In this document: piece by piece, positions 50,704 through 60,779 of the stretch
How the letters are laid out: the number at the start of each line of letters is the position of its first letter
Position numbering within the stretch: the stretch's first letter is position 1
From: Octopus vulgaris
Lineage: Eukaryota
Assembly: GCA_951406725.2 (NCBI GenBank)
Contig: OX597835.1
Coordinates: 25,730,001-25,794,000 of the forward strand
Direction: 5' to 3'
DNA length: 64,000 bases
Made by a program: the position numbers and the translations under genes
Notes under the pieces: generated by a model
Database searches by the model: none
Seen by the model: the letters and a program-made list of their open reading frames with translations, nothing else
What the model was told of the DNA's origin: nothing

Positions 50704-51909
50704 AGCAACGCGACACTCGCAGTGCCATTCGCCCTTCTAAAAAGAGGCCGAGGAAGGGCGTGTGGCACCGCGAGTGTCGCGTTGCTCTCAAGCAACTCTG
50801 CCGTCCTGGATCGACCTTGAGTGACTCCATCACAACCAAAGCATTCTATAGGGGATTAGTGGAGGGAGGTACGACGACGATCTCGGGGCGAACCTGGGCG
50901 TCGACGAGGAATACCTGACCCGCCTGTTTCAAACGACTTTCGGCCCGGGACCTATGGACAACTTCCAGAGATCCCTGGCCTGGCGGTGCTACCGAGAAGC
51001 GCTACCCGTTCGGGATAAGCTCTACAAACACGGCTCGAAAAACACAAAGCCGACCTGCCCGAGATGCGGTCAGAGCGACGAAACCGTTCTGCACGCACTC
51101 GTGCAGTGTCCAACAATTTCCGACCTGTGGGCTTGTGTCGAACAACTGCTGTCACGTGTGGGACGAGTCGGTTTATCAGCTGAGTGTATCGTCAATATTG
51201 TCACGCCTCCTTCCTTCAAACGGGAAGGAAGAGCTATTTTCATCATCCTTGTGGCTATGGCGAAGGAATGTATCTGGTGGACGCGTCTGAAAGGATTGGA
51301 GACAAAGACTTTCGTCTTTGGTCAATCTCTCATCAACTTTTTCAAGTACCACTTGAAAAGGAAAGTGAGAGTAGAGAGGCAAGTTTTGTCTAGCGAATGT
51401 TTTAAAAAAAGATGGGTGAATGTAGCAAGGATGGCACGTATGAATGACGAAGCCACCTTGAGCATAATCCTATGAACCCAGAAATTGAAAACAGAGGGTT
51501 ACCCACTTGCAAACAAATGTGGTAACATATAACAATATTGACCAAGGTTACCGTGGTCTTTTTCGTAGGCTTTCTTTCCACGGATAAACCTTACTTGCTT
51601 TCCCCTTTACACCATACATCATGACACTGTGATACACGATCCCTATTGATCGTTTTTTTCCCTCTTCCCCTTTTTTTCCTCTTTTTTTCTTCTTTTTTCA
51701 TTTTTCTTTTCTTTTGTTCCTTTTCCTTTTTTCTTTTTTCTTTTCCTTTTTTTTGTTCTTTTTTTCCTTTTACGATCCCTTTTGATCGAAAACCTACGCC
51801 ACCTTTTTTTGTTTCTTTTGTTTTTTGTTTTTTTTCATCCCCCAAAAGAAAAGCTCTACCTTGTAACTTGTCCCATCTGTGTGCAGCCCTGTGTGGCCAA
51901 TAAAGAAAC
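50704..51909 (+). mobile_element. 5'-truncated Tx1/L1-like LINE, copy 1
   Basis: ORF2 C-terminus, pyrimidine-rich 3' UTR, AATAAA at 51899, (TATC)n on both sides. Confidence 0.85.
50954..51475 (+). pseudogene. ORF2 C-terminal region with zf-RVT-type zinc knuckle
   Basis: LAWRCYREALPVRDKL...CPRC...ETVLHALVQC...LW...AKECIWWTR is characteristic of L1/Tx1 ORF2 ends. Confidence 0.85.
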
Positions 51910-55014: not shown

Positions 55015-55084
<70 letters not shown>

Positions 55085-55129
55085 GGTCATAAGCATGGAC
55101 GTGTTATAATATTGTTATCATTGATAAAC

Positions 55130-55168
<39 letters not shown>

Positions 55169-55281
55169 GTGACAGAGGATGGACGTATTTTTAAGAAGAA
55201 GGCGGCTGGACGTGACAGAGGATGGACGTATTTTTACAGAAGAAGGCGGCTGGACGTGACAGAGGATGGACGTATTTTTAC
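55169..55281 (+). repeat. 2.6 copies of a 43-44-bp unit at the LINE 5' end
   Basis: gtgacagaggatggacgtattttta(c)agaagaaggcggctggac at 55169, 55212 and 55256 (partial). Confidence 0.95.
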
Positions 55282-56150
55282 GATGCTCTGAACTGGCAAC
55301 AGCGAACCCAGCAGGTCAACTGTAGAAAACTGGAAGATCTACTGTTTACTGTAAGTAATTTGAATTACCCTCAAAATAAGTGAAAAAAAAAACTTACATA
55401 TCTACAGCTCATACAAACGTACACCTAACAAGAAAAATTAGAAACATAAATATCTCCAATCCTGTGTGTGAACATTTACATTTAGTCGTCTCTCATGACT
55501 ATAAGAATGTGTAAAATTGCCTTTTAAATTACCTTTTATTGTAACAACACAATTAAATGCACGATAAAAAGTTATGGAATTAAGCACCTACTACTATATA
55601 CATACAACTGAATTCAGAAATTTAAAAATATATACATAACATTGAACTCAGAAAGTTATTTAAAAAAAGAAAAAAAAATCTTCGACGAAAACATCAGATA
55701 ATATGTGTGAGTGAATATACATATATATACATATACATATGCATGTGGTGAAGAAGAAAAGAGAAAAGAAAAAAAAAAATAAATAAACGTAAACAGGTTT
55801 GACCTTTTACTGACCATTAACGTCCTTTGTCTCCACCATCTACCGTAGCTATTTATAGACCCAAAGAACATGAATTCTTTAACCACCCATTCTCCAACAC
55901 AATGGAGTGTTGATGGTGGCTGTGGCTACACATAAAACAATGTCATTGAAGATGATGATGGTGATGGTGATGTTGCTGATGATGGTGATGGTGGTGAAGA
56001 TGATAGTAATAACAATAATAACTGACAGATCCCGTCTTTTTCCCTTTCGTTTTCGTTTCCGTATTTTATTCTCATTATTTCGAACTAATACAGACACAGT
56101 AAGCCTTGAAGAAAGGAAGAGGAGGAAAGGAAAAAAAAAAAAAAAAAAAA

Positions 56151-59100
56151 ATGTCCGGAGATAAAACTATCAACAAAAAAAATACAGACGAATATAGATC
56201 TGCTAGTCTTAAGAAGCGGCGCTATGAGCAATGCTTACATGTAGTGAACCCTAAACTGACAGATCCATCTCCTAATATAAGAATGGATGCTCGTCATGCT
56301 TCAAGGTCAACAAATCAAACAATAAACCGCATTGGTCATTGCGCGGATTACAAAAGACCACGTACCCGAAAATTGAACCAAATCCTGATTGAAAAATCAG
56401 TTACTGGATCAAATCTTCCCAACACACAGGAGCTGGACGAACCCCACAACCGGAATATTCCAACAGATGGCCATCCATGCTCATCACCAAATAATCAAAA
56501 GAAAAAGAAGGAAAAATGGTCTAGGGAAGATAATAAAGAAGTTCTTGAGGCCTTCTACCATGCCATATATTTCCCCACAGATAAGTCTAGCACTGTACAA
56601 GCATACTTAAACTGGAGACAGAAACACCCTGAAGTAAGACCCTACATAGACAGTAACAAGCTTGCCAATGTTAGAAGAAACATTATAAAAAAGAAATTAC
56701 TGACTGAAGTAGAGATTGATCAGGTTAGACAAGCAATATCGGATAAAATGAACGAAGCTGCAGCTAGAGAAGATAATACAGAGGAAATGATTATAGACCA
56801 GCCCAGGGCGGATAAAAACGAAGAGAGGATTGAAAGAGTTAGTATAAGTGATAGGCAAAGTGAAATACGCCCTGAACCAATCATAAACACTAAGACAGAT
56901 GAGCATCAAATAGATAAAGAAAGTCACACAAATATTGACCCAACAGAACTACATGAGCTAAAAAATCAAATCATGATTGAATGGCTGAAAATTAAAGAAA
57001 CCAGCATGGATGAGCGTGATACACTTCCTAAAATCCGCAACTCTAACCAAAACATGAAAATAATTGGTAAAATCCGGCTTGCACTTAAGGATATAATTTC
57101 AGTTAATGATGTTGATATCACAAACCTCAACCACCTATACTATGCATCCGCGAAAATCTCAACGATCCTATGTGGTGTAAAGATTAGAAAACGGCAACAG
57201 TCCCACAAAAAGCCTTCTTGGCAAGAGCGTCTGCAACAACAAATTAAAATATTTAGATCTGACATTGAATATTTGAAAAACCTTAAGGCTCACAAGATTA
57301 CCAAACCTACAAAAACCCAAAAATTACTGAAAAAATACAATATGAAAACTATACTTGATATTGATGCCACCATAGAAACCATCAAACAAAAGGTATCTGC
57401 CAAAGCTGCCCGCATAGCGAGGTATGAAAAGCGTGTTAGATTTTTCAAGGACAACAACATGTTCAAAAATAACACCAAGAATTTTTACAGGAAGATAGGA
57501 AAAACAGCGTTTACTGCAGGGTCTGTACCATCAAAAGAAGAAGTGCAGAGATTTTGGAATAAAATCTGGGCAGAAGAAAAAACACACAACGAAAAGGCCC
57601 CTGGATTGACAGAATATCTACAGAACTGGACCCCTTAGAAGAGCAAAAGTGGGAGGGTGTCAAGGTAGAAGATATAAGATCTGCTCTCAGGAGGTCAAGC
57701 AAATGGAAGTCTCCAGGAAAGGATAAAATTCCTAACTTCTGGCTGAATGCCTTCCCAGAGAGCCATGAACTGCTAACAGAACTGTACAATGATGTTTTGC
57801 AACACCCTAGTAGGATGCCTCCTTGGCTAGTTAATGGGTTAACATTCCTGCTTCCAAAAAGTGAAGAAACAAATGAACCAAAAAACTATAGACCCATAAC
57901 CTGCTTAACAACTATGTACAAAACACTAACATCTGTCCTGACGGAATATACCTATAGTTTTTTAACAGACAGCAGCATATTCCCTAATGAACAGAAAGGA
58001 TGTAAACGTGGATCCTACGGCTGTAAAGACCAACTACTCATCAATAAGATGATCTTAGAAGATTGTCACAAACGACACAAAAACTTATCAATAGCCTGGA
58101 TAGACTATAAAAAGGCTTTTGATAGCCTACCACATAGCTGGATTAGGAAATGCCTTGAAATGTATAAGATAGCACCAACTCTGCGAAACTTCTTGACTGT
58201 AAGTATGAGATCATGGAGAACCACACTAACTCTGAACAGTGACAGTAAATCCCTAAATGCTGGTGATGTAAAAATTTCGTGTGGCATTTTCCAGGGTGAC
58301 TCACTGTCACCACTCCTCTTTTGTTTATCCTTAATACCTCTCTCAAAGCTGCTCAATGATGCGCAGTACGGGTATAAAATGTTTGATAAAAATATAAATC
58401 ATCTCGTTTACATGTATGATTTAAAGCTTTTTGCAAAAAATGATCAACAACTCAAGGGCTTACTAGCGATAGTCAAACAATTCAGTGACGACATCAGAAT
58501 GCAATTCGGCCTCGATAAATGTGCAAAGGCTACCTTTATCAAAGGAAAAATGACAGAAACATCTAACGTTAACCTTGACCAACAGAATGTCATAAAAGAA
58601 CTAGACCCAGCGGAGAGCTACAAGTACCTAGGGATAATTGAAGGGAACGGAATAAGGCATTCAGAGATGAAGGAAAGGATCAGGAGAGAATGCTATCGAA
58701 GAGTGAGAGCAATACTCAAGACAGAGCTGAATGCAAGAAACAGGATCGAAGCAATCAATGCATTAGCTATACCAGTCGTGACTTACAGTTTCAATATTGT
58801 TAACTGGTCAATTACTGAAATATGTCAGCTCGACAGAAAAATAAGGAAACTGTTGACAATGCATAGAATGCACCACCCTAAGGCAGATACAGAACGACTC
58901 TATCTGCCAAGAAAAGAGGGAGGCCGTGGTCTTTTGCAACTGGCAATAACAATGAAGATTGCTACAATTGGCCTAGACACCTACCTGAAAAACTCTGAGG
59001 ACTGGATGTTAAAACTTGTCTCAAAACATGAAAACAAGAAAGCATCATACTCAGTCACAAAACAGGCAAAGGAATATCTAAGTGAATTCCGAATACAACC

Positions 59101-59968
59101 AATTTCGGAATTAGAGATAGATATACAAGAAACAAGCACAGAAAAAGCTAGGCGCATGAAAACCCGTGCCAAAACTGCGGCCTTAGATATTCTGAATAAT
59201 AAATGGCAAGAAAAACCTCTCTATGGCAAATACCCAAAGAGAGCGAATAATGCAGATATCGACAAAGCCCTGACCCATCAATGGCTAATGGCCTCTGGCT
59301 TAAAATCTGAAACAGAGGGGTTTATCATAGCAGCTCAAGATCAATGCCTACCAACAAGAAACTACCAGGCCAACATATTAAAGATCAGAAGCAGTCCAAC
59401 GTGTCGTGTATGCAAGCAACAAAATGAAACCATTGACCATGTGGTCTCCAAGTGCAGTCTTCTAGCGCCTACAGAGTATCTCAACAGGCACGATAGAGCT
59501 GCACAATATATTCACTGGGTAATCTGTAAAAACCTGGATTTGCCCCATGAAAAAAACTGGTGAGAACACAAACCACCCCCAGTGCTTGAAAATGACCACA
59601 TCTCACTCCTCTGGAACTTCACCATTCAAACTGACAGGAAGATAGATGCAAATAGGCCAGACATCATATTGAAAAACTTCAAACAAAGAACATGCCTCCT
59701 CATTGATATGACTGTCCCAATCGATATAAACGTATCTGTCAAGACCTACCAAAAACTGAGCAAATATAAAGATCTTGAAATAGAAATCAGCAAAATGTGG
59801 AAGCTGAAGACTAAAACAATACCTGTTGTCATAGGTGCCCTGGGAATGATAGCAAAAGGGGCTGATAGCTACCTAACTCAGATACCAGGAAACCCAAAAA
59901 TGGCAGAAGTTCAAAAGATAGTGCTCATGGGAACTGCTCATATCCTACGCAAAATACTCTCTATGTAA
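56151..59968 (+). pseudogene. Disrupted R4/Dong polyprotein (N-terminal Myb-like region, reverse transcriptase, CCHC knuckle, restriction-like endonuclease)
   Basis: KWSREDNKEV...; NYRPITCL, IDYKKAFDSLPH, GIFQGDSLSPLLF, YMYD (normally YMDD), YKYLG; CRVC...ETIDHVVSKC, RHD, RPD...LIDMTVP...KLSKYKDL. Lesions: 1-bp deletion at about 57600, GAT>TAT at 58415, TGA at 59561. Confidence 0.95.
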
Positions 59969-60193
59969 TCTCAAGGTTTAAAACAAACATAAGTTTCGGT
60001 TTAAAAAAAAAAAAAAAAAAAAAAACTTTTTTTTATTTTTTTTAGACATTCATTAGTACAACATCCCCACCCCCCCAAATATATGGCACACTAGGCATAA
60101 CAACAACATGAACTTCCAACCCTGTTGTCTCTTGAGGTCTCTGGGTGAGACCTGGAGCCAACTTGTACAAATATAAAGCAAAAGTCAAACATA

Positions 60194-60225
<32 letters not shown>

Positions 60226-60779
60226 TTGATAATTGATTATTATTTATCTGGTCATAAGCATAGACGTGTTTATATGTTCCAATATATGTATATATATGTA
60301 TATGACGTATGGTATATCTACTTGGACCTATTGTTTAATTGTGTTTATTTATGTATTTTACACATGTAAAAGTATATACACTCTGCTTATGTATGTATAT
60401 GTGTATATATGTATATGTGTATATATGTATATGTATATATCTATATGGATTCTAATATCCGAAAGTTGATAAACAAACTAAATTTGTTTCTCCATTTTCT
60501 TATTTGTATTATATATATATATATATGTAACTCTAAAAACCAGAACAAAAACAACACTAATTTATACTTTGTAAAATTCCAGATCCTCGGAGAGAGTCAA
60601 TACACTGAAAAACAACTCCAGCAGCCGTAACGATTACAAAAAAGAAAACAAACAGGAAAAACAACAAAAGAAAGAAAACAAAGAGTAAAAAACAACAAAA
60701 TGAAAGAAAACAAACAGAAAAACAACAAAAAAGAAAGAATATAAACAAGAATAAAAAAAATTCTATTAATTAAGGCAAA

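Follow-up and report, generated by a model that had tools for sequence, protein, structure and literature searches.

A probable, rarely removed spliceosomal intron in the 5' leader of an R4/Dong-type LINE of Octopus vulgaris

Introduction

Does a LINE of the octopus carry a spliceosomal intron in the leader of its single open reading frame (ORF), and, if so, which of its RNAs is copied back into the genome? The question is raised by a 64,000-nucleotide stretch of Octopus vulgaris DNA (assembly GCA_951406725.2, contig OX597835.1, positions 25,730,001 to 25,794,000 of the forward strand), here called the window, to whose positions all coordinates refer. A preliminary description of this stretch proposed a 498-nt intron at 55351-55848 in the leader of a Dong/R4 element, named a distal acceptor ending at 56093 as an alternative, and supposed that spliced RNA is translated and unspliced RNA serves as the retrotransposition template. 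Its premise that only Penelope elements show intron retention overlooked the SpIREs of human L1 (PMC5860796). As that paper describes them, SpIRE97/622 copies account for 1.8% of full-length L1 copies, most L1 RNA is unspliced, and a transcription-factor site coincides in part with the conserved donor at +98 (PMC5860796).

Recently active Dong-R4 families have been reported from octopus (PMC13282606, PMC9115989); supplements aside, "intron" and "splic" are absent from the main text of both papers. The accessible parts of PMC7998251 mention no intron inside Dong elements, and those of PMC9977147 hold nothing relevant to a leader intron. A literature search, with supplements and Repbase or Dfam notes outside its scope, turned up no account of an intron in the leader of a Dong/R4 element. 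We analyzed the copies of the element in the octopus genome (2.8 Gb, 227 contigs).

Results

The element has a single forward-strand ORF (56151-59968) of about 1,270 amino acids, comprising a helical N-terminal domain, a reverse transcriptase (RT), a CCHC knuckle and a restriction-like endonuclease (RLE). The ORF of the window copy is broken by a frameshift near 57598, a stop at 59561-59563 and an RT motif that reads YMYD, and a frame of at least 1,270 amino acids is open in 7 of 80 fetched siblings. For the sibling L104, with an ORF of 1,270 amino acids, a Pfam scan of the protein returned RVT_1 (E=4.7e-27) and no APE family. Between residues 505 and 1243 the same protein can be aligned with R2 proteins (E=8e-29), a span that includes the C-x2-C..H..C and PD..D..K regions. 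A PDB profile search gave no match below E 0.09, a protein database search gave one close relative and no named Dong/R4 reference, and the Atlas gave unnamed clusters only. The N-terminal domain, modeled at pLDDT 90, had no Pfam or Foldseek match; its VIA matches, all with Z below 8, were the Sap1 DNA-binding domain (Z 6.9, rmsd 7.0, 87 aligned residues), Zeste (Z 5.0, rmsd 3.1, 67 aligned), the ISWI SANT domain (Z 4.9, rmsd 3.0, 63 aligned) and R2 residues 147-215 (Z 4.7, rmsd 3.9, 69 aligned). A Myb-like character of this modeled domain is suggested, not established. R4/Dong elements are described as combining RT and REL endonuclease in one ORF, with a (TAA)n target and a helical N-terminal domain resembling Myb/SANT (PMC7998251), and the octopus element has in common with them the single-ORF RT and REL endonuclease, the target and a helical N-terminal domain. 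Because its protein joins an RT to an R2-like knuckle and RLE and its target is (TAA)n, the element fits the R4/Dong type.

In the window the LINE extends from about 55239 to about 60195 on the forward strand, with (TAA)n tracts on both sides, as the preliminary description had observed: a target microsatellite at 55130-55168 and, behind the ORF, a 3' untranslated region (UTR) with a (TAA)n tail at 59969-60228. An upstream TAA, GAA or TGA run lies within 300 nt at 75 of 80 family loci, and all 30 loci examined for their 5' end begin after the microsatellite at the position corresponding to about 55239-55243. The leader, first given as 55169-56150, is family sequence from about 55239 onwards; the preceding 55169-55238, where the LINE's first 44 nt are duplicated in tandem, is specific to the window copy, and 5' duplications of other lengths are present in other copies. 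When the leader (55282-56120) was used as a query, all 40 scored matches, of 1,242 candidates, were 95-100% identical, so that the leader is element sequence, as had been claimed. A repeat noted on both flanks is real as a 24-mer (55082-55105 and 60247-60270); it is not adjacent to the element, its two copies diverge immediately beyond it, and we rejected it as a clean target-site duplication.

Several further features of the insertions were observed. Tandem repeats of the first 15-44 nt are frequent at the 5' ends (window 55169-55281; L016, L028, L151, L162), with up to about 20 units in L162. Short GAA or GAGAA runs stand between the TAA target and the element in many copies, and different Dong families often lie head to tail within one TAA tract (L047, L074, L102, L171, L179, L182). 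Elsewhere in the window, a 207-amino-acid open frame on the forward strand (50852-51475) contains a C-x2-C..H..C motif; we take it to resemble the C-terminal part of another, Tx1/L1-like LINE.

Every motif named in the preliminary description lies where it was placed: GTAAGT at 55351-55356, TACTGAC at 55808-55814, TAG at 55846-55848, CAG at 56091-56093 and ATG at 56151. When the leader was simulated 3,000 times from its dinucleotides, GTRAGT arose in 35% and TACTRAC in 17%; the combined arrangement, a pattern defined post hoc, arose in 0.6%. The motifs alone are weak evidence, and the case for an intron is carried by the spliced copies described below. The GT-AG stretch that those copies delimit is 743 nt long (55351-56093, forward strand) and has the hallmarks of a U2-type intron, namely GT...AG ends, a GTRAGT donor, a pyrimidine-rich tract and YAG. 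Its putative 5' splice site (55351-55356) reads GTAAGT in the window and GTGAGT in older subfamilies (61 and 37, respectively, of 110 loci). Its putative 3' splice site closes a conserved block (56061-56093) that ends in TACAG and holds two candidate branch points, CTCAT at about -20 and CTAAT at -9, between which the data do not distinguish. The young subfamily has a second AG, the use of which would give the junction 55350/56100. Exon 1 (55239-55350) contains a 19-codon upstream ORF (55266-55325) and two GGACGT motifs, which may be DPE-like; the untranslated part of exon 2 (56094-56150) is variable, at 37-131 nt. ATG triplets are concentrated in the GT-AG stretch (15-39 in 45 of 46 scored copies). 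Exon 1 has none to two, with none in the older subfamily and two in the young one, and untranslated exon 2 has none in 42 of the 46.

The genome contains 144 exact copies of a 21-mer from the end of exon 1, 70 followed by GTAAGT and 74 by other sequence. Of the latter, 50 were fetched and represent 49 loci (GTGAGT in 37, other bases in 12), and the remaining 24 were covered by patterns only. Two of the 144 exon-1-bearing copies, L043 and L074, are exactly without 55351-56093 (1.4%; 95% confidence interval, 0.2-4.9%). Both are full length and bounded on each side by (TAA)n; they lie on different contigs, and their flanks are unrelated. In L043, TTTTCT is joined to GGAGAG, exon 1 running straight into the bases that in siblings come after the distal TACAG; in L074, TTTTCT is joined to GCAGAG. 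A junction pattern allowing up to two mismatches matched exactly these two places genome-wide (control, 0), and a DNA search across the junction returned the same pair among 40 scored of 409 candidates. In pairwise global alignments, the part missing from each copy starts with GT and stops after AG, to the base; the microhomology is a single shared G. Eight other internal deletions in ten chosen copies include none with GT..AG ends as aligned.

L043 is sister to the intron-bearing L044 (99.3% identity), exon 2 of both beginning GGAGAG, and L074 is nearest to the intron-bearing L033 (98.1%), exon 2 of both beginning GCAGAG. The two fall in separate branches of a 64-copy tree built on the 5' part of the ORF, from which copies covering less than 90% of that region were left out. 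Because each spliced copy is closest to a different intron-bearing sibling, they are, as judged from these relationships, two independent events. From established LINE biology, the best explanation for them is that spliced RNA was reverse transcribed, and by their sequence they qualify as SpIREs, being full-length copies with the hallmarks of the element and without the 5'-UTR intron. Both come from the older subfamily, about 91% identical to the window, and none of the 70 GTAAGT-type copies is spliced, a difference from the other copies that is not significant (p=0.50); splicing in the window's own subfamily is therefore suggested by the shared signals. No progeny of L043 or L074 was found among the matches, and two singletons are too few to show that such copies are dead ends. 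These data bear out several expectations of the preliminary description: copies precisely without 55351-56093 are found, and the donor at 55351 is used, as judged by the two exact copies. Of the two acceptors that it offered, the distal one at 56093 is used in L043 and L074, and no copy is spliced at the proximal one at 55848. Nearly all insertions keep the intron, in agreement with unspliced RNA being the template.

Other copies break near the same sites. L097 is a lone exon 1 that ends exactly at the donor (position 321 as oriented), L087 ends two bases past it inside an inverted duplication, and L083 has a deletion of about 55 nt from donor +2; breakage may be frequent at this position. L097 and L087 were searched as possibly interrupted copies, and the missing part of the leader was not found within about 25 kb (L097) or about 15 kb (L087). 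At L222:535 and L223:534 (G000 C7), segmental duplicates that are 99.6% alike, a 5'-truncated copy follows a TAA run whose last bases are AG, and its own first base is precisely that of exon 2; this is one event, possibly due to chance. Contigs of four runs over 55238-55640, of uncertain run type (perhaps DNA) and of a kind that drops rare variants, all bridge the donor unspliced. On the donor side, 12 of the 14 loose ends were compared with 55350 and none falls there, a result uninformative on the splicing rate.

Conservation was assessed in an alignment of 49 leaders (55 were intended; 6 without the anchor motif were dropped), with a variant counted as shared if present in at least three copies. 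Shared variants occupy 172 of 438 sites of the non-repeat interior, compared with 2 of 33 sites in the acceptor block (Fisher p ~5e-5) and 4 of 42 in the donor region (p ~7e-5), the sites in these tests not being independent. The single shared change within the donor hexamer is the splice-neutral A/G at +3. One of the two acceptor variants changes AG to AA in 4 of the 49 copies, two of these with common flanks; TACAA was seen in 5 of the 94 copies in which the acceptor was found, once through an insertion and twice with common flanks. A block within the intron (55532-55570, forward strand) is as conserved as the acceptor, with no shared variant in its best 33-nt windows, and conservation alone therefore does not single out the splice sites. 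This block is likely a cis-element, either of the promoter or of the RNA. It is strongly conserved together with 55788-55815 and is double in older leaders, and both blocks are candidate promoter or RNA elements. The expectation that splice signals are more conserved than the intron interior thus holds for the donor and the distal acceptor; it fails for the proximal TAG, and block 55532-55570 equals the acceptor. Among the 30 closest copies, variation of about 0.1-0.5% in intron, exon 2 and ORF is uninformative on conservation.

The interior varies in length from 672 to 1,444 nt, with (GAT)n expansions. In one older sub-lineage (L084/L127, L121, L125, L130, L140, L141), an insert of about 480 nt, SINE-like on our reading of its sequence, lies shortly before an intact acceptor block. 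This sub-lineage went on spreading, and a 5' truncation inside the insert in L125 shows that the insert was copied as part of the LINE RNA. A metagenome scan for the acceptor block returned no match.

Two related Dong families were compared with that of the window. Family 3 has about 62-66% protein identity to it and a leader that is unalignable except at the acceptor block; of 30 copies, 22 have GTAAGT as donor and 19 have CACAG as acceptor, with a spacing of about 210-225 nt. Family 2, with 39% protein identity over 663 amino acids and copies about 98% alike, has GTAAGT about 125 nt from the 5' end in all 14 aligned leaders and no AG before the ATG. As the donor occurs in all three families and the acceptor in two, these sequences suggest that the donor does something even without splicing. 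In a search for spliced family-2 copies, with a pattern blind to junctions whose second base is T, the one match was a point change; for family 3, with three mismatches tolerated and the junction assumed, one chance-like match compared with three control matches. All three families have AATT(T)GA a few bases after the donor (window 55351-55366), which hints at one ancestral donor element common to them. The part of the acceptor common to the window family (56084-56093) and family 3 is CTAAY directly before ACAG. A branch-point-like motif that near the AG is unusual for an animal, and this position might weaken splicing.

Discussion

The leader belongs to a retrotransposon family, the stretch 55351-56093 was lost exactly and independently twice, its splice signals are conserved, and it is retained in the great majority of copies. 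We consider it probable, with considerable room for doubt, that this stretch is a spliceosomal intron that is rarely removed and that unspliced RNA is the normal template. The same two short copies might instead stem from deletions at the DNA level or during reverse transcription, with the conserved motifs being promoter or RNA elements that resemble splice sites. Internal deletions are common in the LINE family, and L083, L087 and L097 are interrupted at the donor or no more than 2 nt from it, none of them joining the acceptor, as a possible break hot spot would have it. However, in two phylogenetically separate copies the breakpoints coincide to the nucleotide and fall on GT and AG, with microhomology of a single base, and we regard this explanation as very improbable. 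We give equally little credence to the 498-nt intron of the preliminary description, ending at the TAG of 55848 or, in a variant, at the AG of 55858, as the main or regular splice form. The proposed branch point and proximal acceptor (55808-55858, forward strand) have in their favor a CTGAC core present in 49 of 49 aligned leaders and an AG at 55857-55858 in most copies. The TAG at 55846-55848, in contrast, is a minority allele, found in 9 of 92 scored copies (of 110 loci) and replaced by TGG in 27 of the 30 closest copies and by GAA in older subfamilies. No copy precisely without 55351-55848 was found: patterns of exon 1 followed by a non-G base gave no match and then four, none joined to a proximal site. 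Splicing to this site would moreover keep the ATG-rich (GAT)n tract in the leader.

A different question is whether the splicing serves the element. In the scheme of the preliminary description, carried over to the distal acceptor, the spliced mRNA would be translated and the protein would pick nuclear unspliced RNA in trans, so that the intron is required and inherited. Such a scheme would explain the paired conservation and the ATG load better than rare splicing does. Both signals are conserved while the interior, with its wide length range, (GAT)n expansions and inherited insert, behaves as free intron sequence; the ATGs lie in the intron, with exon 2 mostly free of them and exon 1 of the older subfamily entirely so; family 3 retains donor and acceptor in an otherwise unalignable leader; and R2 proteins, which are related, are able to work on a separate template RNA (PMC11371274). 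As far as the sequences tell, acceptor conservation paired with that of the donor, including that in family 3, exceeds what purely incidental splicing would predict. Against the scheme, the protein would have to shun its own mRNA, contrary to the cis preference of non-LTR proteins (PMC5860796, PMC11371274), and cis preference predicts many spliced insertions if spliced RNA is the main mRNA. The observed share of 2/144 equals that of incidental L1 splicing. Family 2 has no acceptor before its ATG, the two exon-1 ATGs of the young subfamily would survive splicing, and no spliced copy of family 2 or 3 was found in searches that each cover only some junctions. Because the proportion of spliced copies matches that of the L1 SpIREs, we favor rare splicing of a retained intron and hold the division between a translated and a copied RNA to be rather unlikely. 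The same doubt attaches to its broadest form, in which Dong/R4 LINEs in octopus would possess an ancient, selected 5'-UTR intron, a spliced mRNA relieved of about 20 upstream ATGs and an intron-retaining template used in trans.

Rare splicing of a retained intron could arise as follows. RNA polymerase II would start at the 5' end of the element, and the promoter-proximal donor would likely be kept for the aid that U1 binding, or an overlapping cis-element, gives to full-length RNA. U1 might protect the A-rich RNA of the element from early polyadenylation; the L104 leader contains three AATAAA motifs. A donor role that does not need splicing fits family 2, given its GTAAGT without an AG before the ATG. 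A weak acceptor would leave perhaps 1-2% of templates spliced, and insertions from these would probably lose cis-elements of the intron and be dead ends, as L1 SpIREs are regarded to be (PMC5860796). Relieved of 15-39 upstream ATGs, the spliced RNA, though rare, would lend itself more readily to translation.

The exact junctions given here can be checked with octopus RNA reads. Should the spliced RNA be the one translated, this would explain how a LINE makes protein behind a 900-nt leader laden with ATGs; an RLE protein could then favor an RNA different from its own mRNA, a matter of interest for cis preference and for R2-type gene-insertion tools. The separation of translated from copied RNA, if true, would be a retrovirus- or copia-like division of labor in a LINE.

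Retained 5'-UTR introns are described in Penelope-like elements, including Chlamys-3_cRei (10.1101/2021.04.23.441226). Unlike the octopus LINE, these elements have GIY-YIG nucleases, pLTRs and splicing supported by transcripts (10.1101/2021.04.23.441226), whereas splicing of the octopus LINE is indicated only through processed genomic copies. The element also resembles L1, in which a long-conserved donor likewise lies about 100 nt into a 5' UTR with an internal promoter and about 2% of insertions are spliced (PMC5860796). The octopus element differs from L1 in belonging to an RLE clade and in having a single ORF. It also differs in that the removed part is most of the leader, is laden with ATGs and evolves like free intron sequence. 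In contrast to the several shifting acceptors of L1, it has one fixed acceptor shortly before the ATG, conserved across subfamilies and in a second family. Judged against the published accounts considered here, L1 5'-UTR splicing with processed copies and retained introns in Penelope elements are known, and the same in a Dong/R4 LINE has no earlier report among them. Spliced retrotransposed copies and conserved leader splice signals are thereby extended from mammalian L1 and Penelope elements to an early-branching RLE LINE.
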